Shown piece after piece: positions 619 through 36,200 of a DNA stretch of 56,973 nt. The notes below the pieces were generated by a model. It was not told where the DNA came from, did not search any database, and was given only the letters and a program-made list of their open reading frames with translations. Source of the DNA: a virus (taxonomy: Duplodnaviria; Caudoviricetes); IMG/VR virus record IMGVR_UViG_3300010354_002996, positions 1 through 56,973 of that record; one strand, 5' to 3'. The position numbers and the translations under genes were made by a program. Within the stretch, counting starts at the first letter, position 1; every line of letters begins with the position of its first letter.

Positions 619-2009
619 AAAAACTTATTGCAGTCTTTCTTGCTTTATTTGTTACTGTAGCGTATGCTGAAGACCTTGGCGGCAACTTCGGTTTTGAAAA
701 CGGTAATCTAACTGGATGGATTATCAGTAATGGTGGTTCATTTAAGTCAGCCACGAGTTGGAGTTCTGATGGTAGTGGTGTTAGTGTTACTAATGGTATA
801 ACGAACTATAGTCCTGGTGGTGGTAACACATGGAATGTTACTGGTTATGGTTCTTATATGGCCAGTATTCAAGCTGGTTCTGGCTCTCCAACATTTGATT
901 CTTCGACTGCATCTTTAGGTCTAACAGGAACAGAAAATACTGCGATCAAAAACTTCTTGACAGCACAGGGTGGCAATTCAAATCCAACTAATGCTTCATG
1001 GATGAAAAGGAATGTTACACTAGAAGCTGGTAAAACATATACGATAGCATGGCAATATCTATCTACAGATTATGTTCCATTCAATGATGGATCGATGATT
1101 ACATTAACACACGCAACGAATTCTGGTATTATTCCTACACTGAACAATGAACAAAAAAGATATGCTCTACTTGGATTTACGAATCCAGGAACTGGTAACT
1201 ATTCAACAGGCAGCTATGCATCTACTGGTTGGCAGTTGGCAATATTTACTGTTCCAGAGAACGGCGAATACTCATTAGGATTTGCTTCATTTAATCTCGG
1301 CGATACTGCTTTGAGTCCTATTCTATTAGTAGATCAGATACAAGGCACAACTACATTGAATGGAACAAACTTTGATCCTATCGCACCAAATGCTGGTTCT
1401 ACTGCACCGACTACACCAACACAACCGCCAGCTCCATCCTATGCTAGTTCTATAACAACACAACAACAGAACAGAGTTAACACTTGGTTGAATCGTGGTA
1501 ATAACTCAAGTGGCGTTTATATAGATCAGATCGGCAATTATAATAACATAACAGTTCTACAGAAAAATCATAAAGATAACTATATCAAATATCAAGGCAC
1601 AGGAAATAACAATAATATAAACATAATACAGAAAACGGATAATGGAACTGGTGCTGGTCATTATCTTGAGTTGGGTAGTATAGGTAATCAGAACACCATT
1701 AATCTTACACAGGATAATAATGGCGGTAAGAAGATGTTTGTTGATAACAATGGGTCTGGTAACAACATTAATGTTACACAGAAGAATGGTGGTCAACATT
1801 ATCTTGATTTAGGATTAACTGGTAACGGTCATTCTGCTACCATTGTTCAAGAAGGTTCTGGCAACCATGCTGCCACGATACGCCTAAATAATTCTGGCGG
1901 TTCATCTAATTTGAATCTTAGTCAATCTGGAACTACCAATCAAGTATATTCAATCGAACAAACATGCACAAATCCAGCTGGATGTAGTGTATCGGTGACA
2001 CAACAATGA
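615..2009 (+). CDS. Secreted protein with N-terminal beta-rich domain, Pro/Thr linker and C-terminal curlin (CsgA/CsgB-like) repeats
   Basis: Signal peptide MKKLIAVFLALFVTVAYA; linker APTTPTQPPAP; repeated Q-x-G-x-x-N-x-I-x-x-x-Q units (IDQIGNYNNITVLQ, QGTGNNNNINIIQ, SIGNQNTINLTQ, GSGNNINVTQ, VQEGSGNHAATI); ends CTNPAGCSVSVTQQ. Confidence 0.75.
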   Translation: MKKLIAVFLALFVTVAYAEDLGGNFGFENGNLTGWIISNGGSFKSATSWSSDGSGVSVTNGITNYSPGGGNTWNVTGYGSYMASIQAGSGSPTFDSSTASLGLTGTENTAIKNFLTAQGGNSNPTNASWMKRNVTLEAGKTYTIAWQYLSTDYVPFNDGSMITLTHATNSGIIPTLNNEQKRYALLGFTNPGTGNYSTGSYASTGWQLAIFTVPENGEYSLGFASFNLGDTALSPILLVDQIQGTTTLNGTNFDPIAPNAGSTAPTTPTQPPAPSYASSITTQQQNRVNTWLNRGNNSSGVYIDQIGNYNNITVLQKNHKDNYIKYQGTGNNNNINIIQKTDNGTGAGHYLELGSIGNQNTINLTQDNNGGKKMFVDNNGSGNNINVTQKNGGQHYLDLGLTGNGHSATIVQEGSGNHAATIRLNNSGGSSNLNLSQSGTTNQVYSIEQTCTNPAGCSVSVTQQ

Positions 2010-4051
2010 AGAAACTAGTCGCATTTATTATTCTTGCATTATTCGTATTCTTGAAGGTGATGGATTATTCACCTGTTGAAATATTGCGACTAAAGACGTT
2101 TGACTATTTGCTAACAAGCAAAACGCCAGTCAAATCAGACAATGTTGTTATTGTTTCTATTGATGAAAAATCAATAAAAGAAAAAGGTCAATGGCCATGG
2201 TCACGCAAAGATATTGCTGAGACCATGGCGTCTTTGTTCAAGCAGGGCGCAGGAATAGTTGTATTCCCTGTGCTTATGTCTGAAAAAGATAGAATGGGCA
2301 CTGATGAAATCCTTTCTGAGTTTCTGACGAAACAGAAGGGCGTTGTTATATCACAAACGCCAACAACTCAGAAAGGAAATGGAAATGCAGTTGTTCGTGG
2401 ATATTCAGCTATTGGTGGCGACGTTCTACCTTACATTGCTAGGTGGAATAGTGTTATCGGTCCTCTACCCGATTTTGGTAAGAATGCTTCGGGCGTCGGG
2501 ATGGCAGCAACCATTCCTGAAAGGGACGGCGTTGTACGCCGCATCCCTATGCTTGTGGCTATTGGCGAGTCTATATATCCCTCGATGGTTTTGGAATCTA
2601 TACGTGTCGCTGTAGGATCACCATCGTTTCAAATTAAATCTACAGACGCAGGAATAGAAGCAGTCAGAGTCCGTGGATTCAAACCTCTGACGACTGATTC
2701 TAACGGTAGAATATGGCTAGACTGGAACTATCAATTCAATAAGATATCACATACAGATATTGGTAAGACTGATCTTAAAGGTAAGATAGTAATTCTTGGA
2801 TTGGAAGTAGAAGGTGTTGGCGGAATTATTGCTACACCATTAGGATCGAAATGGTCTCATGAAATACAGGCAATTGGAATCGAATCGGCGATACAAGGTA
2901 AGACTCCAGTTCGCTTTGCATTCGCTAATCTTCTTGAAGCAATGAGTATTGCTATTATTGGTATTGCGGTGATCTTACTTACACCGATACTATCACCCGT
3001 CGTAACATACTTATTATATCCCATATTTGTTGGTTTGTCAAGTCTTTTTTCTTACTATATGTTCAAAGATTATGGACAACTATGGGATGTCAGTTTCCTG
3101 ATTGTATCGTTCACTATCGTGTTCGGATACATGGTCATACTAAAGTTCCTCAAAGAACTGTTTCTCAAACTACAGATCAAGAAACAGTTTGGCACTTATC
3201 TGTCTCCTGCATTAGTTGAGAAGTTGCAGAAGAACCCAGACTTACTTAAACTAGGAGGAGAAACCCGTGAGCTGTCAATTATGTTTACGGATGTTCGTGG
3301 TTTTACTGCTATTTCTGAGCACTATGGTGATAATGTGCAAGGTCTTACGCAAATAATGAATCGCTACATGACGGCGATGACGGAGAAGATTATTAAGAAT
3401 GAAGGCACATTAGATAAGTATATTGGTGATGCTCAGATGGCTTTCTGGAACGCTCCATTAGATAATCCAAGACATGCTAGAGACGCAGTTAAAACAGCAT
3501 TGGAGATGTTAGATGATCTGGATTCTTTTAATAAGGAGATCGCCTCTGATGGTGTTCCTCCTTTTGGAATGGGCATTGGTATTAATACTGGCTCTGTTGT
3601 GGTGGGTAATATGGGGTCAACACAACGTTTCGATTATACATGTTTGGGCGATTCTGTCAACTTGGCTTCGAGGCTAGAAGGTCAGTCAAAGAATTATGGT
3701 GTTCGTTTGGTTATCGGCGAAGAAACTGCTAAACAAATAATGAACGATTTCCATGTCATAAAACTTGATGTGATAGCAGTTAAAGGTAAAAAGATTGGCG
3801 TCGGAATATATACAATAATATCAGCTGATGACATTATGCCCGTATATCATGCTACACATAAAGACTTTAGAAAATTCTATGAAAAAGGTGATTGGAATCA
3901 AGCGTTAGAATTCCTAAAAGTATTGAATAGCAATCGTGTATTCAATGGAGTTCTCAAAGAATATTATGAAATGATGGAAGAAAGAATATTAGAATATAAA
4001 GCCAATCCACCTAAAGATTGGGATGGAACATATCGTGCAACTAGTAAATAA
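2006..4051 (+). CDS. CHASE2-domain class III adenylate cyclase
   Basis: CHASE2 motifs (VVIVSIDEKS, GQWPWSR, DGVVRRIPM), three hydrophobic helices, and cyclase motifs FTDVRGFT, DKYIGDAQMAFW, GIGINTG, DYTCLGDSVNLASRLEG. Confidence 0.95.
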   Translation: MKKLVAFIILALFVFLKVMDYSPVEILRLKTFDYLLTSKTPVKSDNVVIVSIDEKSIKEKGQWPWSRKDIAETMASLFKQGAGIVVFPVLMSEKDRMGTDEILSEFLTKQKGVVISQTPTTQKGNGNAVVRGYSAIGGDVLPYIARWNSVIGPLPDFGKNASGVGMAATIPERDGVVRRIPMLVAIGESIYPSMVLESIRVAVGSPSFQIKSTDAGIEAVRVRGFKPLTTDSNGRIWLDWNYQFNKISHTDIGKTDLKGKIVILGLEVEGVGGIIATPLGSKWSHEIQAIGIESAIQGKTPVRFAFANLLEAMSIAIIGIAVILLTPILSPVVTYLLYPIFVGLSSLFSYYMFKDYGQLWDVSFLIVSFTIVFGYMVILKFLKELFLKLQIKKQFGTYLSPALVEKLQKNPDLLKLGGETRELSIMFTDVRGFTAISEHYGDNVQGLTQIMNRYMTAMTEKIIKNEGTLDKYIGDAQMAFWNAPLDNPRHARDAVKTALEMLDDLDSFNKEIASDGVPPFGMGIGINTGSVVVGNMGSTQRFDYTCLGDSVNLASRLEGQSKNYGVRLVIGEETAKQIMNDFHVIKLDVIAVKGKKIGVGIYTIISADDIMPVYHATHKDFRKFYEKGDWNQALEFLKVLNSNRVFNGVLKEYYEMMEERILEYKANPPKDWDGTYRATSK

Positions 4052-6066: not shown

Positions 6067-6756
6067 ATGAGAATGCGATTTGATTATTCACCACATATTG
6101 ATTTGCCTAAAGCAAAACAAATCAATTCACCAGCGGGACGTCGTTATCAAACTCCCGCTGGTAGTCTTTATCCTTCCATAACAACTGTTCTTGGTGATCA
6201 GCCAGAAAAGAAACGTTCGCTCGCGGAATGGCGCGCTCGCGTAGGCGCGGAAAAGGCACAGGCAATATCTACGCAAGCAGCACGGCGCGGAACTAATCTT
6301 CACAATCTCATGGAAAAGTATATCCTTGGCGATGACGTTGATCCTAAAACAGTTCTTCCTTCAACTATCGCGCATTTCAAACCAGTAAGAAAATGTGTTG
6401 ACAAAAACCTTCAGCTGGTATATACTACTGAAACTTCAATGTATTCTGATTTGCTACGAATAGCAGGAACTGCTGATTTGATCTGCGAATGGGACGGCGA
6501 AGTTACGGTGGTTGATTTCAAGACTTCGCGAACTATGAAAACGCGCGAAATGATTCACGACTACTTCCTGCAAGCAACCGCATACACAATCATGTTCGAA
6601 GAACATACGGGAATCGAAACCTATAATATCGCTATCTTAATGGTCACGGATGAAGGCGAGTTTCAGGAGTTCCGCGGTCATCGAAATGATTATGTGGCGG
6701 ATTTGTTGAATGTTCGTAATGAATATGAAAAAAGAGTCTTGACAAATACACTCTAA
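6067..6756 (+). CDS. PD-(D/E)XK exonuclease
   Basis: YPSITTVL, RGTNLH, IAGTADL, VDFKTS, YFLQATAY. Usual neighbour of phoH in T4-like phages. Confidence 0.88.
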   Translation: MRMRFDYSPHIDLPKAKQINSPAGRRYQTPAGSLYPSITTVLGDQPEKKRSLAEWRARVGAEKAQAISTQAARRGTNLHNLMEKYILGDDVDPKTVLPSTIAHFKPVRKCVDKNLQLVYTTETSMYSDLLRIAGTADLICEWDGEVTVVDFKTSRTMKTREMIHDYFLQATAYTIMFEEHTGIETYNIAILMVTDEGEFQEFRGHRNDYVADLLNVRNEYEKRVLTNTL

Positions 6757-6772
6757 TGATATAATATAAATA
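6735..6772 (+). promoter_or_regulatory. Tandem sigma70-like promoter and T4 late promoter upstream of the tmRNA
   Basis: TTGACA 6739-6744, 17 nt, TAATAT 6762-6767; overlapping TATAAATA 6765-6772. Confidence 0.7.
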
Positions 6773-6777
6773 TATTG

Positions 6778-7100
6778 TTATCGTTGAAGTTGACGATAGA
6801 CGGATCGGACGTGGGGGCAGTACCCACCGCCTCCACCATGGATGCATCGTTCTCAAACCTGCTTAGGAAAAGCACCCGAGAACATAGCGCTCACTGTTTT
6901 GGTCGGGAAACCATCTACGGTGCATCTTTGATGGGGGCGAAATAGGATCGACGGACGTTGATGCGGAGATGGAGATAACGGGATGATCGCCTCATAGATC
7001 AAAAACCATAGGTGCCAACGATAATGTTGCTCCTCGTTACGCTCTAGCAGCCTAACATGAGTTTTCGGTGGGTTTGACTTGGAAACAGAATAAACCCACC
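6778..7100 (+). ncRNA. ssrA: Circularly permuted two-piece tmRNA, alphaproteobacterial type; tag (A)ANDNVAPRYALAA
   Basis: Acceptor piece first: T-arm GTGGG-GGCAGTA-CCCAC (6811-6827), CGCCTCC-ACCA (6828-6838). Coding piece starts GGGGGCGAAATAGGATCGAC at 6933 and forms a 7-bp acceptor stem with G3:U. Tag ORF 7014-7055. Outer boundaries approximate. Confidence 0.93.
7067..7100 (+). terminator. Hairpin closing the tmRNA coding piece
   Basis: GGTGGGTTTG...TAAACCCACC 10-bp stem. No strong U tract, so it may be structural or a processing site. Confidence 0.5.
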
Positions 7101-7171
7101 AACTTATGCGCCTGAGGGAGAGGCGTGCGCTAAACAAAATATCCCCTCACCTTTTAGAGGATGAAAGCAAG

Positions 7172-8520: not shown

Positions 8521-9372
8521 ATGTCATTTTATGATGATTGTGGTAATGATAAACCATTGAGCATTATCGCTGGTCCTTGTGTGTTTGAATCAAAGGACCA
8601 TGCGCTAGAAATGGCTGATCGTTTGCGTAATATAGTCCAAGATGTTGGATTTGTATTAGGGCGACCAGTCAACTTCATATATAAGACGTCCTTCGATAAG
8701 GCGAATCGAACATCTGCGGGAGGTTATAGAGGTGCGGGGTTCGATGAAGCGTTTTATGGAATGGACGCCGTCCGTGGATTAGGTATTCCTGTTCTTACGG
8801 ACGTTCATGACCCCTGGCAATGCGGAGCGACGAATGCTGACATCATACAGATTCCCGCTTTCCTTTGCAGGCAGACTGATCTACTCGAGGCAGCAGCACA
8901 GACTGGCAAACCAGTCAATGTCAAGAAAGGTCAGTTTCTTTCACCACAAGAAATGACGAACGTGGTGGAAAAGTTGGAGCATTTTGGTTGCAATAAAATT
9001 ATGCAAACTGAACGCGGAACAACATTTGGTTATAATAATCTAGTTGTTGATATGCGTTCGCTTGATATTATGAAACGCAACCAATATCCCGTTATCATGG
9101 ATTGCACTCATGCAGTCCAGCTTCCTGGAGGACAAGGAACATCATCTGGTGGTCAACGTGAATTCGTAGGAACTCTTGCTCGCGCTGCAGTTGCTGTTGG
9201 CGTGGCGGGCGTTTTCATGGAGGTTCATAACGATCCTGATAATGCTCCGTGTGACGGACCCAATATGTTAAATCTTGACATGTTCGAAGATCTACTATAT
9301 GATTTGTTTAAGATTGATCGAGTGAGAAAGGAAATTGATCATGAAAGACGACTTCAAGGAAGACAACAATAA
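8521..9372 (+). CDS. kdsA: 3-deoxy-8-phosphooctulonate (KDO8P) synthase
   Basis: IIAGPCVFES, KTSFDKANRTS, QIPAFLCRQTDLL, VKKGQFL, ERGTTFGYNNLVVD, DCTHAVQ, EVH, CDG. Confidence 0.96.
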   Translation: MSFYDDCGNDKPLSIIAGPCVFESKDHALEMADRLRNIVQDVGFVLGRPVNFIYKTSFDKANRTSAGGYRGAGFDEAFYGMDAVRGLGIPVLTDVHDPWQCGATNADIIQIPAFLCRQTDLLEAAAQTGKPVNVKKGQFLSPQEMTNVVEKLEHFGCNKIMQTERGTTFGYNNLVVDMRSLDIMKRNQYPVIMDCTHAVQLPGGQGTSSGGQREFVGTLARAAVAVGVAGVFMEVHNDPDNAPCDGPNMLNLDMFEDLLYDLFKIDRVRKEIDHERRLQGRQQ

Positions 9373-9913
9373 GACGTTTGCTCCTACGCTAGAAGAAAAG
9401 CACTACTATCTATTCAATAAAGATTTTAATCATGATTCCTGTGGAGATGCCCTTGCCTTTATCCTAGAACGTAATCTTATGGATAAAGATCGCCCCAAAC
9501 AAATCAAAATGATTATCAACTCTTATGGTGGCGTTGTTGATGCAGCATTCGCACTTATCGATACCATGAAGGGATCTCGTATTCCAGTCTTTACATACGG
9601 TCTTGGTTGTATTGCCAGTTGCGGTCTGATGACATTCATCGCTGGTCAAAAGGGAAAGCGATTCATTACTCGTAACACATCAATTCTTTCACATCAGTTT
9701 TCTTGGGGAAACTTTGGTAAGGAACATGAACTGTTTGCTACAGTAAAAGAATTTACCAACACTCAGCAGCGTATCGTAGAACATTACAAACGTTGCACAG
9801 GAATGACAGAAAAGAATATCAAGAAATATCTGCTTCCACCTGAAGACGTATGGCTAACGGCAAAAGAAGCAGTTAAATATGGCATCGCAGATGAAATAGT
9901 GGAGTGGTATTGA
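9341..9913 (+). CDS. clpP: ATP-dependent Clp protease proteolytic subunit
   Basis: IINSYGG, CIASCG (catalytic Ser), LSHQ (His), EDVWLTAKEAVKYGIADEI. SD aaagga. Confidence 0.92.
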   Translation: MKDDFKEDNNKTFAPTLEEKHYYLFNKDFNHDSCGDALAFILERNLMDKDRPKQIKMIINSYGGVVDAAFALIDTMKGSRIPVFTYGLGCIASCGLMTFIAGQKGKRFITRNTSILSHQFSWGNFGKEHELFATVKEFTNTQQRIVEHYKRCTGMTEKNIKKYLLPPEDVWLTAKEAVKYGIADEIVEWY

Positions 9914-12334: not shown

Positions 12335-12403
12335 TCGTGGGCTTTCCTTTCCTTTCACCTACGATTAAACTGGAGGGGAGCAGAAATGTTCCCCTCTTTT
12401 TTT
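12331..12403 (+). terminator. 11-bp hairpin with pyrimidine loop followed by an intrinsic terminator
   Basis: TTAATCGTGGG/CCTACGATTAA (12331-12368); GAGGGGAGCA-GAAA-TGTTCCCCTC-T7 (12373-12403). Confidence 0.9.
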
Positions 12404-14372
12404 ATGCTGATGCCGTTGGTGCTGCAGCGCGTTGATTTGTACACCATTTAATAAAATCACCAATGCCCTGACCGCCAAGTTCGTTTGCTGTTGGTAGAGC
12501 AGATATAGGACCAGTTGGATGATTTGGCAGATCGTCACTATATTCTTCAGACTGATTATTATTATATACTTCAGGTTGCATATTCTGCATCTGCATTTGC
12601 ATCATATTGAAATTCATAGAATCAGTTTGACGCGATTGATATTCAAGACCAGATCCTTTTAGATCTGGTTCAGCTGGACCACCTCTACCGCCAGCTGCTG
12701 GTCCTTGTCTTATGTTAACGGTTTCTGTTGTGTCTCTACCCTTAATCCAGCTCATAGGATTCAATGCGCTTCTTTGCGTTTGGCTTTCGAATGAAAAATT
12801 AGTAGCATTATCATCACCAACACCATAATCTGGAGATTTTACGTTTCTATACCACCAAGCAGAACCCTTTCCTTTATTCTTTTTTCCTTCTTCAGTAGCC
12901 AAATATTTTCTATATTCATCAATCAATTCTTGATTTTTATTAATACGTTCTACAAGTTGTAGATCTGTCAACAGTTCAGCACCAGGAATCAATCCAGTTT
13001 CTGTTCGTTCTCTATTACCGCCAAGTCTTCTAGCAGATGCTATTCGCGCGTTTCGAATCTCTTCTAGTTCTTCTGTGCTAACTTGTTTTTCTTTTGCTAC
13101 TTTGTAAACTTCATCTTTAAGTGCTTCGAAGAAATCTTCACCCTTAACAACTTTTCTGCCTAATGATCTTCCGAGAATACCACCAGCTTCGGCTCCAGCA
13201 AGACCGCCAATCAAAGAGCCCACAACAGGAACAGGAATAAGATTACCAACCATAGCACCAACATTAGCACCAAGATATGTTCCTAAAGCATCAAAGATAG
13301 AAATATAAAAATCCTTTCTAGTGTCTTCGATTTCTTTATCATTTCTTTGATCTGGCGGTCGACTCATCGCTTCATAATGTCGCATAAATGCACTGGAAAC
13401 AGTTGCAACAGCCATTACCGCCCCAAGACCGCTCATAACTTTATTGGCGATGCCACCATCAAAACCTAAAACGCCTTTGGCTATTTTAAGAGTATTTTCC
13501 GTTGCAGCCTTGAAAGCAGCTTTTACCTTTGGCGTCATCTTTTGTGGTGTTCCAGGAGCAACTGCTGGTGGTGTTCTGCCAGGAACGTTTGTTGTGACGT
13601 TACCGTATCCAGGTCCAGTTAGTCCGAATCTACCTGTTCCAGTTCCAGAAAGACTACCTATATTTTTCCCAGAAACTCCCGTTTTAGACGGCTCCCACGC
13701 CATAGAAACTCTGGCAGTGGGTTTTCCAGGAATTTCTAGATTGATTGGAGGCGCGTTACGAGGAACTCTTTGCGGCTTTCCTGGTGGTTTTGGTTTATTT
13801 GGTTCTTGTGTTGGTGTTCTTGTTTGTTGTGGTGTTCTTGTTTGTTGTGGCGTTCTTGGTGTTGTTGTTCTTGGTTTATTTGGTTCTTGTGTTGGTGTTC
13901 TTGTTTGTGGTGGCGTTTTTGGTTTTGGTTTTCTAGTATCAGGAATAACAGGAGGAATAACAGGAGGACCGCTGGGAAGATCAATTCCTTTCCCCGCTAC
14001 TCCAGGACCGAAAGGTTCTGCTTCACCGCCGATGCCGCCGCCAGCAAAATCAAATGATATTGCTTTCAATGCCGCTAGAAAATCATTTCTACTGGATTCA
14101 ATTTCTTTACGAAGATAGGTAAACTTAAATCTAATATTCTTTTCTAGATTTGTTAGATCACGGATTACAGCTTTGAATCCGTCTACAGTTTTTTCTGAAG
14201 ACTTTCTCAGATCTGCAAATGAATCATTAGTTTTGCTTAGAAAAGAAGAAAAATCAGATATAGCAAGTTTCAGCATATCACTAGATACTTTAACTACATT
14301 ATCATTAGCTGCTGCAGCAAATACGCTTGGTCTAATGTAATTATCATTAGAAGCAATAGTTGGTAATGCCAT
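12402..14372 (-). CDS. Putative tape-measure/hub-associated virion protein with Pro/Thr repeats and Gly-zipper hydrophobic segment
   Basis: Downstream of gp26/gp51; helical N-terminus, GAMVGNLIPVPVVGSLIGGLAGAEAGG, low complexity. Confidence 0.55.
   Translation of the reverse strand: MALPTIASNDNYIRPSVFAAAANDNVVKVSSDMLKLAISDFSSFLSKTNDSFADLRKSSEKTVDGFKAVIRDLTNLEKNIRFKFTYLRKEIESSRNDFLAALKAISFDFAGGGIGGEAEPFGPGVAGKGIDLPSGPPVIPPVIPDTRKPKPKTPPQTRTPTQEPNKPRTTTPRTPQQTRTPQQTRTPTQEPNKPKPPGKPQRVPRNAPPINLEIPGKPTARVSMAWEPSKTGVSGKNIGSLSGTGTGRFGLTGPGYGNVTTNVPGRTPPAVAPGTPQKMTPKVKAAFKAATENTLKIAKGVLGFDGGIANKVMSGLGAVMAVATVSSAFMRHYEAMSRPPDQRNDKEIEDTRKDFYISIFDALGTYLGANVGAMVGNLIPVPVVGSLIGGLAGAEAGGILGRSLGRKVVKGEDFFEALKDEVYKVAKEKQVSTEELEEIRNARIASARRLGGNRERTETGLIPGAELLTDLQLVERINKNQELIDEYRKYLATEEGKKNKGKGSAWWYRNVKSPDYGVGDDNATNFSFESQTQRSALNPMSWIKGRDTTETVNIRQGPAAGGRGGPAEPDLKGSGLEYQSRQTDSMNFNMMQMQMQNMQPEVYNNNQSEEYSDDLPNHPTGPISALPTANELGGQGIGDFIKWCTNQRAAAPTASA
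13783..13915 (-). repeat. Intragenic direct repeats encoding QTRTPTQEPNKP x2 and TPQQTR x2
   Basis: ttggtttatttggttcttgtgttggtgttcttgtttgt occurs twice, about 81 bp apart. Confidence 0.85.
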
Positions 14373-14373
14373 C

Positions 14374-16938
14374 TTAGAATGCCCTTGCGAATGCGCCGAA
14401 GAATGAAGTGGCGACTATTGGAAATTGATTGAGATTGCCGCCATCCACAGTTCTTGCTCTTGTTATTGTTTTTGTGTTGTTTATTATAATAGGTTTAACC
14501 CCTCCCATCGCAGGCATTCCAGCGCCCATCATAAAACCAAACATTTGTGCTAAACCAAACAAGGGAGAACCAACAAACGGATTCATTTGCATTGTAGGAA
14601 TACCAGCTGTAGCAGATTGTGATGCTACCTGACCTCCAGGACCAGGAACTGCTAGTGTGTTTCCTGGACCAGCAATTGGTTCTGTTGCACGAGCTCCTTC
14701 TTCTGCTGGAACGGTTGCTGCAGAACCACTAATCATACCAAGAGGATCAACTGGTGATCCATTTTTACGAATTTCGAAGTGTAGATGCGGACCAGTTGAC
14801 ATACCAGTGCTACCAACGAGACCAATAACCTGCCCTTGTTTTACTGGTTGACCAACAGAAGTTCTAAATGTATGTAAGTGGGCATACCGTGAGGTTGTTC
14901 CATCTGAATGCTGCACTTCTACCATATTACCATAACCACCAGCAACACCTGCACGAACAACAGTACCGTCTGCTGTCGCTTTTACTGGAGTTCCTGTTGG
15001 TGCAGCATAGTCGACGCCAGTGTGCATCCTACGAGTTTTCCTGATAGGATGAATACGATAACCAAACTTACTTGATATTCTAGCGCCATCTACTGGAGAT
15101 GTATATCCAGAAGAAGTGCCTGTAGGAGATCCTGGTGGTGCAGCAGGATTAGCAGCAGCATTAGCAGCTGGACCATCTACAGGAACGTTTGGTTGATTAG
15201 CTAGTGATGTTGGAGAGCCAGTTGGTGATCCTACAGCAGATTGTGCAGTTCCTAAAAATTGTAAGTATTTGCCTGATTTGTAAACGCTCCAGGCTTTAAA
15301 TCCTTGCTGTTGAAAAATTTTTCTAGCAGCCATAGCATTAATTTTAGGATCTTTAAGCTGTTCGTTGGTTTGAATACCAAAAAGACGTCTTCGTTCAGGA
15401 CCCAACCTATCAATCATATTAATTTGCCATAATCCGTATGAATTATCTCCAGTAGATCTGTTTGGATTATGTGCATTAGGATTGCCGCTTGATTCGGCTG
15501 CCCCTATAGCACCCATAATTGCAGCTTCTTGGTCATTGAACCCAGCTTCTTTTGCTAATTGAACCATCCGCGAAACGCTTAAAATGTTTGTTCCGCGGGC
15601 GCCACCTACATCACCAAACCCACCTCCAGGAGTAGCTGTGCCAGAAAGAGCTTCTGCATTAATAGTTGCCGTTTGTGCTTGTTGTCTTTGTCCTGCTCCT
15701 AATGGCGCTTTATCGCCTCGAATGGCTTTTACAATAGTCATACCCTCAGTTCTTTGTTTATGAGGATTGACTTCACCATGTCCATAAACTTGAGTATCGG
15801 AATACCCAAGCATTTTAGCTAGTTTTTTAGCAGCCTCTACTTGTACTGGTAAAATGTCACTATCGTCTTTAGCAATAACTTCGACACCTTCTGTATTGGC
15901 ATTCGAAAGTCCTTCACCAACGCCTTGGCCATTTTTCATATGCTGACCACGTCGACCAGAAGGAAGAACTTGATATATTTTTCCTTCTCGATCAATAATG
16001 AATTGCGTTGGGAAATTGCGTTGTTTGAATACGTTTATGATACCGTCAGCAGTACCGCGTCCTGCTGTATGATGAATAATAAACCCTTCTCTACCAGACA
16101 AACTGCCAAAATTAAATAATCCTTGAGTTTTATTTGTTAAATCGATTACTCCAGAAAGATTAGCAGCCCCAGCTTGTTGTCTATTGATAGAAGGTGCTTC
16201 GCCTGACGGCGTTTGTTGTCGATTGTTGTTGTTTCCACCAGCAGTATCGGGTTTTGCTCCCCCACCAAAATAAAATTTATGTAAAGCTGCTGCTCCAGCA
16301 AAACCAACGCCAGCACCAATACCAGCAGCAGCAATACCTAATCCTTTTGTTACAGCACGACGTCTTGCTATACGACCAGCGCGTGCTCGAACTTCTGCTC
16401 CGCGAGCGCCACTACGATAATTTGTATCACCACCTTGACTTGGACTTAATACTCCTCCGCCTTGTCTTGTAGCTTGACCAACTGTTCTTGTAGCACTCCC
16501 ACTATTTGCACGAGATCCTCCAGCAGCTGGTCTAGAAAGCGAAGCACCGCCAGATCCCGATCTTGATGATCCTTTTTTTGATGGTGATTTAAATGATGGT
16601 TTTGCTTTTGCGCCGCCAGCACGAGTTGCTTGTTGTGTGCCAGTAAGTTTTGCTATAACGGCATCTTGAAACTCTTTCTGTTGATCCTGTATCTTACGCA
16701 TAGTAAGATCGGTTTCGTTGGCAAGAGTTGTTATCGTGTCTGTTAATTTACCAAAAAACTTTGGATAAAGATCTTGAATCTTTTCCTGATTTTCTGAAAC
16801 GCTTCTAATTAGATTGTTAGATTCTTTAAGTTTCGTCCGAACGGGACCACCAAAATTATCATTAGCAGCTTTGACTATGCGCGAATAGGACGGAAGTGCT
16901 CCCCGTAGCATATCTTTTTGCGTGCTTGATATTGGCAT
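14374..16938 (-). CDS. Multi-domain virion peptidoglycan hydrolase: amidase + lysozyme-like/transglycosylase + M23 peptidase
   Basis: IIHHTAG...FIIDREG...GVEV...YGHGEV; AAESSGNPNAHN...SYGLWQIN; HTGVDY...YAHL...STGPHLHFE. Confidence 0.88.
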   Translation of the reverse strand: MPISSTQKDMLRGALPSYSRIVKAANDNFGGPVRTKLKESNNLIRSVSENQEKIQDLYPKFFGKLTDTITTLANETDLTMRKIQDQQKEFQDAVIAKLTGTQQATRAGGAKAKPSFKSPSKKGSSRSGSGGASLSRPAAGGSRANSGSATRTVGQATRQGGGVLSPSQGGDTNYRSGARGAEVRARAGRIARRRAVTKGLGIAAAGIGAGVGFAGAAALHKFYFGGGAKPDTAGGNNNNRQQTPSGEAPSINRQQAGAANLSGVIDLTNKTQGLFNFGSLSGREGFIIHHTAGRGTADGIINVFKQRNFPTQFIIDREGKIYQVLPSGRRGQHMKNGQGVGEGLSNANTEGVEVIAKDDSDILPVQVEAAKKLAKMLGYSDTQVYGHGEVNPHKQRTEGMTIVKAIRGDKAPLGAGQRQQAQTATINAEALSGTATPGGGFGDVGGARGTNILSVSRMVQLAKEAGFNDQEAAIMGAIGAAESSGNPNAHNPNRSTGDNSYGLWQINMIDRLGPERRRLFGIQTNEQLKDPKINAMAARKIFQQQGFKAWSVYKSGKYLQFLGTAQSAVGSPTGSPTSLANQPNVPVDGPAANAAANPAAPPGSPTGTSSGYTSPVDGARISSKFGYRIHPIRKTRRMHTGVDYAAPTGTPVKATADGTVVRAGVAGGYGNMVEVQHSDGTTSRYAHLHTFRTSVGQPVKQGQVIGLVGSTGMSTGPHLHFEIRKNGSPVDPLGMISGSAATVPAEEGARATEPIAGPGNTLAVPGPGGQVASQSATAGIPTMQMNPFVGSPLFGLAQMFGFMMGAGMPAMGGVKPIIINNTKTITRARTVDGGNLNQFPIVATSFFGAFARAF

Positions 16939-17127
16939 TTAATTTCTCTGTAACTGTTGTTCTTGTTTTTGTTTCAGTTCTTCAAGATAATCAAGCAGGA
17001 GTTTTACATAAATCTCCCTTTCCCACGGAATCATTTCTTCAAGCTCAGACAAACTATATTTGTGATGTTGCATTAACGAAAAGTTTGTCTGATAATAATT
17101 CATCAGTGTATTGTGAGAAAGGGTCAT
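16939..17127 (-). CDS. gp51: Baseplate hub assembly protein (gp51-like)
   Basis: NYYQTNFSLMQHHKYSLSELEEMIPWEREIYV. Confidence 0.88.
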   Translation of the reverse strand: MTLSHNTLMNYYQTNFSLMQHHKYSLSELEEMIPWEREIYVKLLLDYLEELKQKQEQQLQRN

Positions 17128-17834
17128 CAGAAAAAATCTGACAGCCCCTCCATCTCAACTGAATCTTCTTGACCACATCCAACACACTTATAAGAAAACT
17201 TGTGGCGCAACTTCGGCATAGTATTAAAGAATTCGGTAATCTTTTCAAACTGCTTACTATTCAATCCTTCAATAAATTGCACAGAATCTTCAATGTTATC
17301 TGGATCATACACTTCATCCTGATCGAACACACATTTAATGCAAGAGGCGAGCATACGAATTTCATCTTCGCCTTGTGATATTGAAGCTATACTGTCGATA
17401 GTTGGATATTTCATTTCAATACCCATTTTATCATCTAGCATAATTTTAGTTGTATGACCTTCCAGCTTTTCTACCTTTACATTTTCAAGATTAATATCAA
17501 CAGGAGTTACTGCTTCACATGGTTCACCTTTATAATTTACTGCACCATTGTGACGATATTCCATCTTGATAATTTCGCCAACAGACTTAGCACGAATATT
17601 CAAAAACAAATATTCAATATCAAAGTATGGCAGCTTTGAAGCGTCAAGGTTTCCATCAACACAGGAAACGACAACGTCCTTTACCGCATCAATCATTACG
17701 CTTTCTTCAGCTGCTTGTGCAGCCATAAGCAATACTTTTTCTTCCTTTACTAGAAAAGGTCTGAATGAAACCTTTTCTCCTGTTGAGGGAAGTGTAACAG
17801 AAAATTTAGGAATAGCAACTTTCGGTAATGCCAT
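17127..17834 (-). CDS. gp26: Baseplate hub subunit/assembly chaperone
   Basis: MALPK, RPFLVKEEKVLL, FDIEYLFLNIRAKSVGE, MKYPT, FFNTMPKL, C-terminal GLSDFF. Confidence 0.92.
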   Translation of the reverse strand: MALPKVAIPKFSVTLPSTGEKVSFRPFLVKEEKVLLMAAQAAEESVMIDAVKDVVVSCVDGNLDASKLPYFDIEYLFLNIRAKSVGEIIKMEYRHNGAVNYKGEPCEAVTPVDINLENVKVEKLEGHTTKIMLDDKMGIEMKYPTIDSIASISQGEDEIRMLASCIKCVFDQDEVYDPDNIEDSVQFIEGLNSKQFEKITEFFNTMPKLRHKFSYKCVGCGQEDSVEMEGLSDFF

Positions 17835-19224: not shown

Positions 19225-19232
19225 TATTTATA
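19225..19232 (-). promoter_or_regulatory. T4-type late promoter TATAAATA
   Basis: tatttata 7 nt upstream of the gp2 ATG. Confidence 0.7.
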
Positions 19233-23661: not shown

Positions 23662-24654
23662 ATGGCTATTACTCAAGAACAAGCTATAAACTTTGCAAAA
23701 ACTTCGGGCGTTGTTCCTCCTGGTCAAAATTTTACTATAGGTAATCAACAATTTACAATGCCATCATCTTCATCTGCTGGACCCGCAGGAACAACATCAA
23801 CTTCTTCTGGTGGTAAGAAATACGGAGAAAGTAAGCCTGGAGATGGATATTCAAAGCAAGAATGGCACGGCACAAAATTGCTTGCGCGCAGCGAATCTGG
23901 CGTTGAAATCCGTATGGGAGATACTCCAGGAAACAGAGAATTTTTCATTAAGCATCCAAAAGGAGCATATATTCATATTACTGATAAAGGTAATGTAGAT
24001 TTTAGAAGTCCAGGCGCACACGCAGAAATTAATATGGATAACAGAACTATTCGTATTATGAAAGACATGACTATGGAAGTAGATGGAAATATCTCACTCA
24101 GAGCGCCAAAAGGCGAACTATTGTTAACTGGAAAATCAATTGGCATAAAATCTACTGGCGGTAACATTGATATAAATTCGGCTAAGAATATTACTCAGGA
24201 AACAGGAGAGTGGTCTACAAACGCTAGAGGTAAAGTTAACCATACTACTGGTGCTCAACATAATCATACTGTTCACGGCGAAGCGACTTTAACTTATAAT
24301 GGTGGTAAAAAAGATTCTACAACAGGAGATTCTATCACATCAGTAAGTGGTGACAGCGTTAGTATGACTGGCGGTGAACATTCTGTTCAGTCTGCTGGAA
24401 CAATGGGGTTTGGCGCTGCAGAAATAGGTATTGCTTCAACTCGTCAGACTACAATTAATGCTGTTGATGGAAACTTGACTTTGAATACAGGTGCTGTTGG
24501 TACGTTCGAAGCAACTGGTAAGTTGCAGCAGAAAGGCGCGCAAGTGTCAGTTGCAGGTGATACTTATATTGGTCAGGAATCTCTAGGCGCAACGGTAGGA
24601 CCTAAAGTCGCAACAGTTAGTGGTCCTGCAGATAAAGCGTTTGCTAAGGTATAA
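23662..24654 (+). CDS. gp5 C-terminal beta-helix spike
   Basis: SESGVEI, DTPGNRE, HPKGAYIHI, then V-x-G repeats. Confidence 0.75.
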   Translation: MAITQEQAINFAKTSGVVPPGQNFTIGNQQFTMPSSSSAGPAGTTSTSSGGKKYGESKPGDGYSKQEWHGTKLLARSESGVEIRMGDTPGNREFFIKHPKGAYIHITDKGNVDFRSPGAHAEINMDNRTIRIMKDMTMEVDGNISLRAPKGELLLTGKSIGIKSTGGNIDINSAKNITQETGEWSTNARGKVNHTTGAQHNHTVHGEATLTYNGGKKDSTTGDSITSVSGDSVSMTGGEHSVQSAGTMGFGAAEIGIASTRQTTINAVDGNLTLNTGAVGTFEATGKLQQKGAQVSVAGDTYIGQESLGATVGPKVATVSGPADKAFAKV

Positions 24655-33252: not shown

Positions 33253-36200
33253 ATGGCTAACGAAGCAAATAATGTTACACTTAATACCAATTTTAATGTA
33301 GCACCATACTACGATGACTTCGATGAAACGAAGAATTTCCATCGTATTCTTTTCCGTCCTGGTCTTGCTGTTCAGGCGCGCGAACTTACGCAAATACAGT
33401 CTATTCTACAAAATCAAATCGATCGTTTTGCTTCACATATTTTTAAAGAAGGATCAACAGTTCAAGGGTTAGAAATGAACTATGATCCAGTATATAATTA
33501 TGTGAAACTAAGAAATAATAATTCGACTGGTAGTTCTGTTAACGTAGGTTCATTCTTAAACAAAACGATAAAGGGTGCAACATCTGGTGTTATCGGTCTT
33601 GTTGTTAACACAACGCAAGGATCGGAAGCCAACACGCCTAATTTCAAAACATTTTTCGTAAAGTATCTTTCTGCAAACACATCAACTGGTTATCGATATT
33701 TTGCAAATAATGAAATTTTGAATGATGTCGCAGGGAGCGGTCTTTCTTGTAACACTATTACTTCTAGTCAAGGTGGCGCAACAGGATTTGGCGCAGCAGC
33801 TGAATTTAATGGTGGTATTGTTTATGCCAAAGATCACTTTATTCGAGTTCCTGCACAAACAGTAATTATCAGCAAATACAACACACAAACCGCATCAGGT
33901 AGAGTCGGGTTTGACATAACTGAAGAAATCATAACAGAAATTAATGACACATCCCTACTTGATCCAGCTCAAGGATCATATAATTATGCTGCTCCAGGCG
34001 CAGCAAGATTAAAACTTTCTGTCGAGTTGATTAATGTTCCGCTGAATCAGACTGTATCAAATACGTTCGTTCAACTTTTGGTTGTAGAAAACGGAACTGT
34101 TCAGTCAATTTCAAATAGAACACAATATTCACAAATTCGTGATTATATGGCTCAACGAACATATGATGAGTCTGGTGATTATATTGTCAGTGGATTTGCA
34201 CCAATTATTACAGAACACCTTAAACAAGCTAACAATCAAGGAAAATACACTTCGGCAGAAGGCGGAAATTCTAGTCTTTTGTTTGTTTCTGTAGAACCTG
34301 GAAAGGCTTATGTTAAAGGATACGATGTTGAAAATATAATTTCATCAGGGTCTTCAATCGAAAAGGCACTAGATTATCGTTCTGTCGAAAGCGCAAAGGC
34401 TTTGGCTGATTATGGCAACTATGTTATTGTAGATAACGTTGCTGGCCAGTGGGATGTTAATCAGCAAGGGACCATTTCTCTTCGTGCGCAACAAGCCAAT
34501 TCTGTTTCAAATAAAACATACTCAACAATTTCTTTTCCATCATCACACATAGGTCGCGCGCGTGTGCGCGGTGTTCAACATTACTCTGGAACTCCAGGTC
34601 TTCCAAGCGCACAATACAAATTATATCTAACAGATATTGTAATGAATAGTGGATTTAGTTTTTCTAATACACAGTTTATTGGTTGGAACAGTTCTACTGG
34701 TGCAAATGGTCATGCTGATATTATTGTTTCAAATGGTAAAAACGCAAACACATTTGATTCTAGATTTAATCGTGCAGTATTTTCTCTTCCTGCTGGTCCT
34801 ATTAGAAAACTTCGTGATACTTCTGGTAACGTCAATAATGATTTTTCGTTTTATAAGTCGTTTGATGTAACTTTTAGTTCTACAAGTGGTCAGGCTACTA
34901 TTACAACAGGAGATAGTAGCGAAACTTTTGATGGAAGTGGTGTTCTTAGTGATGCAGCAACACGCACCGATTTTTATGTCGTTTCGCGTGCAGCCGCAAA
35001 TACAGGAACTTTTACAGAAACGCTTTCAACAACAAGCGGATCAAATACAGTTACAGCTAGTGCAACTATTGATGGTAAAGTAAATCCTGGTGATATCATC
35101 AATATTCATACTGGCGGCGGTAATTTCTTAGTCAGTGCAGTTAGCGGAACAACAATTAATCTGTTTGAAAACGCTACCGCATCTGGCGCTGGAAAAGCCT
35201 TTCACAAAAGATTTGTTTCGGGACAAATTCTTGATTTTGCTGGTGTAGGTAAAGACGGCAATCGTTCAATTACGATTTCTGGAACTCCTTCTACTACAGC
35301 TCTTCTCGACATGAACGAGCCATTAACATCAACAATGGCGGCTACAGCTATTGTTATTTTGAATAAGATCGATGGACAAGAAGCAACCAAAACTGTAAAT
35401 CGTAATCGTTTGGTACAAATTCATGTCGGTAGCAACAGAGGCGGTTCTGGTTATACTGCAAACACTACTGGTCCTTGGAACTTAGGTCTTTCTGATGGAT
35501 TCAAATTAAATTCTGTTCGTAAGAAAAGCAGTTCGGACTTCAGTTCAACAACTGACGGAACTGATGTAACAAGCAATTTTACTCTTGACACAGGCATGAA
35601 TGACGGTTACTACGATCATGCTAAGTTGGTAAAAAAATCAACAAGCAAATTATCTATAGCTTCTGGTGATAGATTACTTGTATCGTTCGACTACTTTACT
35701 CATTCAAATAGAGACCGAGGATATTTTTCATTTGATTCATACCCTGTTAATGATCAAACAGCAGGTAGTGATACAACAAAAATATACACATACGAAGTTC
35801 CTCTATTCACTTCACAAACAGACGGTTCAGTCTTTGACTTGCGCAACAGCATTGACTTTAGACCTAGAATCACAGATACAGCAAACAGCGTAACAACTGT
35901 TACGAATATAGCAACTAATCCTCTAACTTCGTTAACTGTAACTTCTGTTTCAGGAGGGTTACATTTCTCACCACCAAACGAAGATTTTACTACTGATCTA
36001 GATTATTACTTGAGAAGAAACGATGTGATAGGAGTCAAGAAAGACGGGCAAATAGACATTATTCGTGGTGTTCCAGACGCATTTCCTTCTACTCCACCAA
36101 CACCTCATGATGTAATGCCTATTGCTCAGATTTCACTTGCACCATATCCTTCATTGCCCAATGAAATTGGTCGCCGTGTTAATAGACCTGATCTTACGAA

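Follow-up and report, generated by a model that had tools for sequence, protein, structure and literature searches.

The leaders of two adjacent late proteins of an uncultured T4-like phage carry ANDN plus a hydrophobic residue as a genuine short linear motif, and its enrichment in the proteins of this phage, as [AS][AS]NDN, is not due to chance. The same residues open the peptide tag encoded by the phage's own tmRNA. The motif could well serve to dock tape-measure-type tail proteins, a reading to which we give slightly less than an even chance; that it mimics the tag in order to be bound by the host adaptor SspB is possible but rather doubtful.

ANDN motifs in two adjacent proteins

The window, i.e. 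the whole stretch of 56,973 nucleotides that was analysed, had been read from its letters as encoding AANDN-type motifs at the N-termini of two adjacent virion proteins, and the motifs were found where that reading had placed them:

12402..14372, minus strand: 656-aa late protein (open reading frame; founding member of a family from uncultured phages, start MAISNLV)
14295-14312, minus strand: AANDNV, primary copy, residues 21-26 of the 656-aa protein, followed by the x-K-x-S-S block
14337-14354, minus strand: ASNDNY, upstream copy, residues 7-12 of the 656-aa protein
14374..16938, minus strand: 854-aa late protein (Pfam Amidase_2, SLT_3/SLT, Peptidase_M23)
16852-16869, minus strand: AANDNF, residues 24-29 of the 854-aa protein

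By ORF call, the 656-aa protein starts with MALPTIASNDNYIRPSVFAAAANDNVVKV and the 854-aa protein contains ...SRIVKAANDNFGGPV; a motif pattern search of the window returned matches at 14298-14312 and 16855-16869. A six-frame search of the window gave these two occurrences of AANDN alone, so the statement that no further exact copy exists was correct, and it gave three occurrences of ANDN (expected count, 0.3): in the 656-aa protein, in the 854-aa protein and in the tmRNA tag frame. When expected counts were computed on the ORF set of the window (55 genes, 18,283 aa), AANDN was expected 0.022 times and observed twice, and [AS][AS]NDN was expected 0.094 times and observed three times. All three [AS][AS]NDN copies lie within the first 40 residues, where ∼0.01 is expected, and three copies were reached in 0/300 within-protein shuffles, so the enrichment held against shuffled controls. 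The counts in the two proteins are not fully independent because their N-termini may be paralogous: they align at the motif by hhalign (E 3.5e-4, probability 37%), which pairs LPSYSR..AANDNF of the 854-aa protein with RPSVFA..AANDNV of the 656-aa protein. The BLASTP similarity between the two N-termini is weak (E 0.06).

Tape-measure-like proteins in a late tail module

The 854- and 656-aa genes sit in a T4-like hub and tail module of late genes, with the following neighbouring features:

12372..12397, no strand assigned: GC-rich hairpin and T tract, terminator-like, between the convergent gp32 and 656-aa genes
17127..17834, minus strand: gp26-type baseplate hub gene (PF12322, 213 bits), directly upstream of the 854- and 656-aa genes
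19225..19232, minus strand: T4-type late-promoter motif, TATAAATA, a short way upstream of the run of minus-strand genes

This minus-strand run comprises the gp2-like, tail-tube-like, gp26-like, 854-aa and 656-aa genes, and the gp48, gp53, gp27-like and gp5-like genes are on the opposite strand. The late-promoter motif has 10 matches versus 4.9 expected. The window gp26 is ∼42% identical to its best cultured-phage matches, which are cyanophages, and cyanophage S-CAM3 has two large unnamed proteins at the equivalent position.

The 854-aa protein has a helical-repeat-like leader at its N-terminus, then a hydrophobic stretch rich in Gly and Ala, then domains of the amidase, lytic transglycosylase and M23 peptidase types, and its C-terminus is hydrophobic. 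We take it for a probable tape-measure or ejection protein that carries its own wall hydrolases. Its PHROG matches to tape-measure and endolysin families run via the M23 domain, as do the matches of tape-measure genes of Listeria and other phages; tblastn against phage records gave matches through the enzyme domains only, and a metagenome-contig scan with alignment A1 gave M23-domain matches only. In its homologues the N-terminus, the M23 domain and the C-terminus are kept, and the middle domains are swapped. The motif is found in 6/7 of these homologues, with A25, N26, D27 and N28 invariant in the six aligned sequences (6/6); the distant homologue L179 has SGEPEF at the motif position.

The 656-aa protein is tape-measure-like in its build, with conserved termini (consensus C-terminus ...QNVQYQ), a middle of low complexity that is rich in Pro and Thr, and a glycine-zipper segment; a variable middle between conserved ends is the pattern expected for a protein anchored at both ends. 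The Gly-zipper_Omp match scores 22.2 bits, under the Pfam cut-off of 25, and no Pfam tape-measure domain matched. Tape-measure and tail-lysin families of PHROG match it only weakly (phrog_794, E 3e-4), and the ESM Atlas label 'putative tail tape measure protein' (0.91) is a lead only. By tblastn with the 656-aa protein and the members P0029 and P0021, no cultured-phage counterpart of the MAISNLV leader was found; scans of viral and metagenome contigs with the 656-aa protein, and of viral contigs with P0029, returned no relative, and the two genes had no megablast match among phage records.

Both proteins look like tape-measure or ejection proteins, which would place them in the tail lumen. Tape-measure proteins with wall hydrolase domains are known, e.g., T5 Pb2 and those of mycobacteriophages. 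The 854-aa protein resembles them in being long, in its place in the tail or hub module, in having segments that are hydrophobic or glycine-rich and in the M23 domain close to its C-terminus; the present case differs in that two such proteins occur in tandem, and in a T4-like contractile-tail phage. In T4-like contractile-tail phages, gp29 and gp5 normally divide the tape-measure and hydrolase roles.

Conservation of the motif and its relation to tmRNA and ClpP

The 656-aa family comprises 58 library representatives at E <= 0.001, and motif conservation was scored on a 53-sequence alignment. [AS]NDN is present at the primary N-terminal site in 33/53 members so that, with the count for the 854-aa homologues, the conservation in orthologues on which the tag-mimicry proposal depended is borne out in both families. 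In 28/34 cases the primary motif is followed by V, L, M, I or F, as is the rule in alpha-type tags, and K or R is found at +3 in 52/53 members. Copy number ranges from one to three. Extra copies are found in 7/53 members, at no fewer than three, i.e. at least three, separate places on the tree, and presence or absence of the primary motif switches 4–5 times; in the 53-sequence set, the window's 656-aa protein alone has a second copy within its subclade. As the extra copies (ANDNK, ANDNR, ANDNRP and SNDNY) keep ANDN and not the flanks of the primary site, the selected unit seems to be exactly the part that matches the tag.

The leader is laid out as M-A-I-S-x-L-V ... R-P ... F-G ... A-N-D-N-hydrophobic-x-K-x-S-S, followed by a coiled-coil-like stretch. 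Over the 53 sequences the information content is 4.3/4.0/4.2/3.5 bits for M-A-I-S and 4.0 for L, 3.2/3.6 for R-P, 3.7/2.8 for F-G, 2.5/3.15/2.3/2.8 for A-N-D-N, 3.6 for K and 4.1/3.5 for S-S. Although the members share only 24–30% identity, the N, D and N columns still reach 2.3–3.2 bits, and the 20/53 members without [AS]NDN at the primary site retain the remaining leader blocks. ANDN is one block of a larger N-terminal module, the other blocks of which are better conserved.

Related loci were collected with the gp26-type gene as anchor, and the best 80 of 584 viral-contig relatives were kept. In these best 80 of 584 loci, 12/12 [AS]NDN copies are in large proteins encoded after gp26, and 10/12 lie in the first 35 residues. 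A proteome-wide avoidance of [AS]NDN was considered and dropped: the count elsewhere in the best 80 of 584 loci is 0, but this absence is noise because the comparator [AS]NDT is equally absent (0, 6.6 expected).

The tag and the protease with which the motif had been proposed to act are encoded at lower coordinates of the window:

6735..7146, plus strand: two-piece permuted alpha-type tmRNA (ARAGORN, Rfam)
9335..9913, plus strand (divergent): ClpP-like serine protease gene (PF00574)

The phage tmRNA was verified as alpha-type by ARAGORN, which places the permuted gene at 6742-7146, and by Rfam scores above the gathering thresholds (RF01849, 114.9 bits, gathering 50; RF04321, 115 bits, gathering 47). 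Its tag frame (∼7014-7055) encodes ANDNVAPRYALAA, ending ALAA, and AANDNV is indeed identical to the first six residues of the tag when the alanine of the charged tmRNA is counted; the start of the Caulobacter tag, given as AANDNFAEEFAVAA in PMC9393093, is likewise identical to AANDNF. The phage clpP stood in part. The ClpP-like protein scores 113.8 bits on PF00574 (cut-off 20.2), and in an alignment with a solved ClpP its Ser, His and Asp fall on the triad; however, it falls under every NCBIfam ClpP cut-off (best 99.8 bits versus 249) and thus below the level of cellular ClpP. On the head-maturation model it reaches 65.6 (cut-off 120), its best PHROG is 'head maturation protease', and no match to ClpP was found for residues 1–47. 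The tmRNA and ClpP-like genes lie behind sigma-70-like promoters (TTGACA-17-TAATAT at 6739-6767, and 9275-9303, respectively), whereas the 854- and 656-aa proteins are encoded in the late operon.

The proposed coordination of the motif with phage ssrA and clpP did not hold consistently across related phages. In the three phages in which both are visible, the residue after ANDN in the protein does not track that in the tag: the window has V in the tag and V and F in the proteins, L005 has A and F, and the closest relative, G012, has V and M. The phage tags seen are ANDNV, ANDNA and ANDND. L011 has a tmRNA with an ANDN tag and has lost the motif from the protein; L022 and L023 also have ANDN tags, yet their proteins are without ANDN and carry an N-terminal repeat, NPV..RSSDA.RAVS, twice. 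At the equivalent position, L004-L015 have one or two copies of SKYYY..DG..VDE.G.PA, and the pair of proteins encoded after gp26 in a more remote T4-like clade has a different N-terminus in common, MKLTKTYSGDL... (BLASTP E 3e-6 for the L074 pair; the L079 pair is alike by eye). G012 retains the motif, an identical tag and the ClpP-like gene. The latter is present in 2/3 closest-clade records and in 0/5 sister-clade records with the motif, all of which are fragments. No phage-encoded SspB gene was found in five records, all fragments (the window and four related ones). The profile of the T4-type prohead protease, PF03420, matched neither the window nor G006, both fragments, but its control had no match anywhere, so this absence carries no weight.

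Candidate functions of the ANDN leader

As candidate hosts, we took the five alphaproteobacterial genomes with the closest KdsA homologue (57–62% identity). In 5/5 of these genomes sspB adjoins ssrA, and their tags carry two ANDN units (ANDN...ANDN), which fits a dimeric reader. Alphaproteobacterial SspB reads the N-terminal, adaptor-binding part of the ssrA tag. Compared with the alphaproteobacterial tag, the core A-A-N-D-N plus hydrophobic residue is identical and ASNDNY is a near match; both are in terminal, probably flexible segments, and the lineage that possibly includes the host has SspB. However, the phage motif is N-terminal (residues 7–29) and genome-encoded, whereas the ssrA tag is C-terminal and added co-translationally; the phage proteins, unlike the tag, lack a terminal LAA/VAA-type ClpX degron, and the conserved K-x-S-S that follows the phage motif is not found in ssrA tags.

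Under the docking reading, which we hold at just below an even chance, the leader would be a segment that fixes the head-proximal end of the protein to a symmetric phage partner during tail assembly, for instance to the terminator, the lumen of the tube or a factor of hub assembly. Within this segment ANDN would make one of the contacts, could be duplicated for added avidity and lost upon a change of partner, and would match the start of the ssrA tag by chance, over a pattern of four to five residues. Both the exposure of the leader and its binding partner are inferred. This reading is favoured by the better conservation of the other leader blocks and their retention in motif-less members, by the hhalign alignment of the two window N-termini at the motif, by the different motifs that other clades share at the same position, and by L011 and L022/L023, which have ANDN tags and proteins without ANDN; it is also favoured by the T4 hub and tail context, the late-promoter motif and the weak tape-measure matches (PHROG, ESM Atlas). 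On the other side, chance identity with the tag has a low prior probability, given the expected ANDN count, and a lower one still in a clade that itself encodes ANDN tags; the hydrophobic residue after the primary motif, the extra copies that preserve ANDN but not its flanks and the weak BLASTP homology between the two N-termini also count against docking.

The coincidence would be removed if the ANDN-hydrophobic motifs were true tag mimics, i.e. putative docking sites for host SspB, a sequence-derived proposal that we regard as possible and clearly less probable than assembly docking. Through SspB, tail-lumen proteins that are unassembled or have been ejected would be brought to ClpXP and there cleared or extracted; alternatively, the motifs would be a decoy occupying SspB while the phage tmRNA tags proteins. 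In favour of mimicry, the phage tags, the candidate-host tags and the Caulobacter tag all have this pattern; near-terminal position, one to three copies and 4–5 gains or losses are the behaviour of an accessory linear motif; and the motif occurs in two different protein families, in a phage whose closest relative keeps motif, tag and ClpP-like gene together. The adjacency of sspB and ssrA in all five candidate-host genomes, and their double-ANDN tags, point the same way. However, a ClpX-type C-terminal degron is absent (the window proteins end ...APTASA and ...FARAF, the family ...QNVQYQ), tags have nothing equivalent to the family-wide K and S-S, and the motif is missing in 20/53 members of the 656-aa family and in 1/7 of the 854-aa homologues. 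L011 is among the motif-less members in spite of its ANDN tag, L022/L023 combine such a tag with a different repeat, ClpP is missing from the five sister-clade records, all fragments, and the sigma-70-like promoters of tmRNA and ClpP point to a timing different from that of the late operon.

Phage precedents for parts of such a system are on record. An SspB homologue is found in the T4-like Pseudomonas phage pf16 (PMC5587285), a member of the T4 group that seems to interfere with the pathway of this adaptor and is a precedent for mimicry; in the account given there, pf16 has the adaptor itself and no tmRNA, whereas the window has a tmRNA and possible adaptor-binding peptides and no SspB gene. 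SAR11 and OM43 myophages (Melnitz, HTVC008M-type) encode two-piece tmRNAs (PMC9004378) and, as described there, are likewise T4-like aquatic myophages with a permuted alpha-type ssrA behind an early-type promoter. SspB and ClpP each have 0 occurrences in the searched text of PMC9004378, and its passages on phage tmRNA mention no tag-like motifs in virion proteins.

The remaining two readings are both improbable. Slightly the better of them is that ANDN has no function of its own and is a locally conserved stretch of a fast-evolving leader, with extra copies produced by slippage where the sequence is rich in Asn. The motif has few residues and is absent from one third of the 656-aa family, the upstream leader is often Asn-rich (GNANRP, GNVNRP) and, as the [AS]NDT comparison indicates, [AS]NDN is not unusually avoided elsewhere; but the confinement of 12/12 copies to the large post-gp26 proteins in the best 80 of 584 loci, the information retained in the N, D and N columns at 24–30% identity and the recurrence of the motif in a second protein family argue otherwise. 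We find it still less probable that the ANDN-marked leader is trimmed during tail or head maturation, by the phage ClpP-like enzyme or a prohead protease. Tape-measure proteins of other phages are known to be cleaved. Here the gene of the ClpP-like protease, with its aligned Ser-His-Asp triad, lies at a distance of 2.5 kb and is kept in 2/3 closest-clade records, and the best PHROG of the protein is a head maturation protease. However, ClpP-family enzymes are not known to recognise defined sequence motifs of the ANDN kind, none of the five motif-bearing sister-clade records, all fragments, has ClpP, and the first seven residues, the most conserved part of the leader, would be lost upon cleavage.

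Even if ANDN is a mere assembly contact, as assembly docking would have it, these data define a previously unnamed family of putative tail-lumen proteins in uncultured T4-like phages, and they show that the leaders at the N-termini evolve as short motifs, prone to repetition and different from clade to clade. Leaders with one to three ANDN copies might, more tentatively, be the first viral structural proteins that plug into the host trans-translation adaptor. Either on entry or ahead of assembly, the leader would be captured by the dimeric adaptor, which would pass it to ClpX; wall-degrading, membrane-active proteins would be extracted or cleared, or SspB would be diverted from its normal clients. 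The motif would then have been lost and duplicated repeatedly as the phages adapted to hosts that do or do not have SspB and to hosts with one or two ANDN units in their own tags. If SspB binding is true, phage tmRNA, the ClpP-like gene and tail-lumen hydrolases, three phage features so far without a common explanation, would be linked; the adaptor-binding half of the tag would be used in nature away from the C-terminal degron, and phage-encoded trans-translation would gain a concrete, testable partner.

Gene layout of the window and probable identity of the two proteins

The window, a fragment of 56,973 bases of an uncultured virus record that is ~32% complete, has a T4-like myovirus gene order. 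The left end carries on the (+) strand, in this order, a CHASE2-cyclase gene, PhoH, a PD-(D/E)XK nuclease, the two-piece tmRNA, a DNA methyltransferase, a KdsA-like gene, a ClpP-like gene, a cupin, a gp59-like helicase loader and gp32. A converging (-) run comprises gp4-like, gp2-like, tail-tube-like and gp26-like genes, followed by those of the 854-aa and 656-aa proteins. Beyond it, the opposite strand encodes gp48, gp53, gp27-like, gp5-like, gp6, gp7-like and gp8-like proteins, and neck, sheath-stabiliser, terminase, sheath and portal genes lie further along. The main features are:

2006-4051 (+): 681-aa CHASE2-cyclase, matching the CHASE2 sensor domain at 130 bits and the adenylate/guanylate cyclase catalytic domain at 80 bits; it could be a nucleotide-signalling auxiliary gene
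8521-9372 (+): KdsA/DAHP-synthase-family gene (227 bits)
12402-14372 (-): 656-aa protein
14374-16938 (-): 854-aa protein
23662-24654 (+): gp5-like hub protein of just 330 aa, partial match to the 'hub subunit and tail lysozyme' profile (E 4.8e-10)
33253-39615 (+): 2,120-aa ORF downstream of the baseplate wedge genes

Both the 854-aa and the 656-aa genes lie near the hub gene in a late operon, and a T4-type late-promoter motif is present upstream of the (-) run, as it is upstream of several other late genes. The two proteins share an architecture in which a conserved N-terminus and a conserved C-terminus enclose a variable, low-complexity or enzymatic middle. The 854-aa protein bears Amidase_2, SLT and M23 domains; across this protein and its homologues P0002-P0006, the first ~200 residues, the leader included, and the M23/C-terminal part are kept and the middle lytic module is swapped, being Amidase_2 with SLT, a VanY-like peptidase (PF13539) with or without SLT, or a chitinase-like domain (PF00182). 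The short gp5-like gene gave no lysozyme match; this hub protein seems to be without a lysozyme part, and the wall-degrading activity seems to have shifted to the 854-aa protein. In cyanophage S-CAM3 the corresponding position is likewise occupied by two large proteins, both unnamed. From position and architecture, direct profile matches being weak, the 854-aa and 656-aa proteins are best read as tail-lumen proteins of tape-measure or ejection type.

Occurrence and conservation of the ANDN motif

The sequence-only reading had placed ASNDNY and AANDNV in the 656-aa protein (within 14295-14354) and AANDNF in the 854-aa protein (16852-16869); sequences and coordinates were both exact. In the 55-gene ORF set (18,283 residues), AANDN occurs twice against 0.022 expected and [AS][AS]NDN three times against 0.094 expected, all within the first 40 residues, and none of 300 shuffles attained three [AS][AS]NDN. 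In the six frames of the window, ANDN is found three times: in the 854-aa protein, in the 656-aa protein and in the tag frame. Among ORFs totalling 264,253 residues from 80 related loci, retrieved with the gp26 gene as anchor (the best 80 of 584 relatives), every one of the 12 [AS]NDN matches falls in a large protein after gp26, and 10 of them lie within residues 1-35 of 656-aa protein orthologues. These data confirm the motif observation, beyond chance. Avoidance of the motif elsewhere was considered and dropped, as the comparable [AS]NDT is also absent against 6.6 expected.

Conservation, which the same reading had left to be checked in orthologues, was found in both families. A first set of the 656-aa family had the motif in 14/16 members, the exceptions (L011 and L012) being mutually near-identical. 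A profile search with this family against 1.84 billion cluster representatives yielded 58 matches at E <= 0.001. The first 125 residues were then aligned for 53 sequences: the window protein, its close relatives P0008-P0012 and the 47 profile matches that begin at the family N-terminus (P0013-P0061, minus the later-starting P0054 and P0055); the weak or partial matches P0062-P0067 were left out. The N-terminus reads M-A-I-S-x-L-V, and [AS]NDN occupies a single aligned site in 33/53 sequences, with VNDN in one more; K/R at +3 is present in 52/53, with S-S after it, and seven of the 53 carry two or three copies of the motif. When the 46 full-length members (>= 450 aa) are placed on a maximum-likelihood tree, presence and absence of the motif take five changes (4-5 across bootstrap trees; just two are forced by well-supported branches alone), and multi-copy forms lie in at least three separate places. 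The motif in this family is thus old, repeatedly duplicated and repeatedly lost.

The 854-aa family has the motif in 6/7 members. K-[AV]-A-N-D-N-[FY]-G-G-P is kept in five homologues from a large protein library, whose whole first 110 residues are so similar that its retention alone says little; in the more distant L179 (41% identity over the first 150 residues) the flanks are kept and SGEPEF replaces ANDNF.

tmRNA, ClpP-like gene and candidate hosts

ARAGORN and two Rfam models agree on a two-piece tmRNA, as first proposed; its tag is ANDNVAPRYALAA. The accompanying ClpP claim held in part: the protein scores above the Pfam cut-off and has Ser, His and Asp residues that align with a solved ClpP, but it is divergent, falling below every NCBIfam ClpP cut-off and best matching the PHROG 'head maturation protease'. 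Upstream of the tmRNA lies a sigma-70-like promoter, TTGACA-17-TAATAT (promoter features within 6739-6772 (+)), overlapped by a perfect T4 late-promoter motif, TATAAATA (6765-6772 (+)), 4 bases before the Rfam permuted-tmRNA start; because of this overlap, the gene may be read both early and late.

The closest genome matches of the KdsA-like gene, a possible host-range clue, are alphaproteobacterial contigs (57-62% identity), with Planctomycetota and Bacteroidota next (<= 53%). In all five alphaproteobacterial genomes examined, chosen by this homology, sspB lies directly beside ssrA, and the predicted tag, ANDNVALVAANDNNVVAARLAA, contains two ANDN units; ARAGORN called it in 2/5 loci, with a different call in one and none in two, and the coding stretch aligns in 5/5. 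In the flexible C-terminal tails of their SspB proteins (L165-L169), A-A-N-D-[ET]-K shortly precedes the conserved S-[LM]-E-[AS]-F-R-K-R end, placing a tag-like tetrapeptide in the tail of the adaptor itself.

Possible docking within the phage or mimicry of the tag

The reading we prefer, at somewhat short of even chances, is that ANDN has a docking role internal to the phage and resembles the tag by coincidence. Mimicry, by which the motif would engage the SspB pathway, appears rather unlikely, and the remaining probability goes to processing or to no specific function. Mimicry draws on a match spanning five positions (A-N-D-N-hydrophobic), with V, L, M, I or F after the primary motif in 28/34 sequences, and on additional copies that retain ANDN and not its flanks. 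However, the leader extends beyond ANDN, and its other blocks are better conserved and persist where ANDN is lost. G012, the closest relative with sufficient sequence, has the motif, an identical tag and a ClpP-like gene in the same order, and the sspB-ssrA pairing and double-ANDN tag of the alphaproteobacterial genomes point the same way; yet in L011 the tag is of ANDN type and SANDP and NANANL replace the motif, and in L022 and L023 (4174-5802 and 866-2494) the tag is ANDND and the N-terminal motif is NPV..RSSDA.RAVS, present twice.

Other clades also count against mimicry. In the sister clades L004-L015, the first large ORF after gp26 has G.SKYYY..DG..VDE.G.PA...F instead, in one or two copies, and the two post-gp26 proteins of a distant clade share yet another N-terminal sequence. 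These proteins thus generally bear N-terminal motifs that are repeated or shared, regardless of the tag. PMC5587285 reports an SspB homologue in a T4-like Pseudomonas phage, which favours mimicry, but no phage SspB was found in the window and four related records, all fragments; five fragments from sister clades lack ClpP, and no C-terminal ClpX-type degron was found. The tmRNA and ClpP-like genes lie behind sigma-70-like promoters, but the 854-aa and 656-aa proteins are late. In the open-access papers and preprints searched, no description of virion proteins with tag-like motifs was found, and the searched text of the Melnitz paper on the two-piece tmRNA of SAR11/OM43 myophages (PMC9004378) mentions neither SspB nor ClpP.

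Engagement of SspB would be unusual and is cheaply testable with peptides and purified SspB. The motif itself is a genuine short linear motif, both conserved and evolutionarily dynamic, carried in the leaders of two proteins of tail-lumen type.
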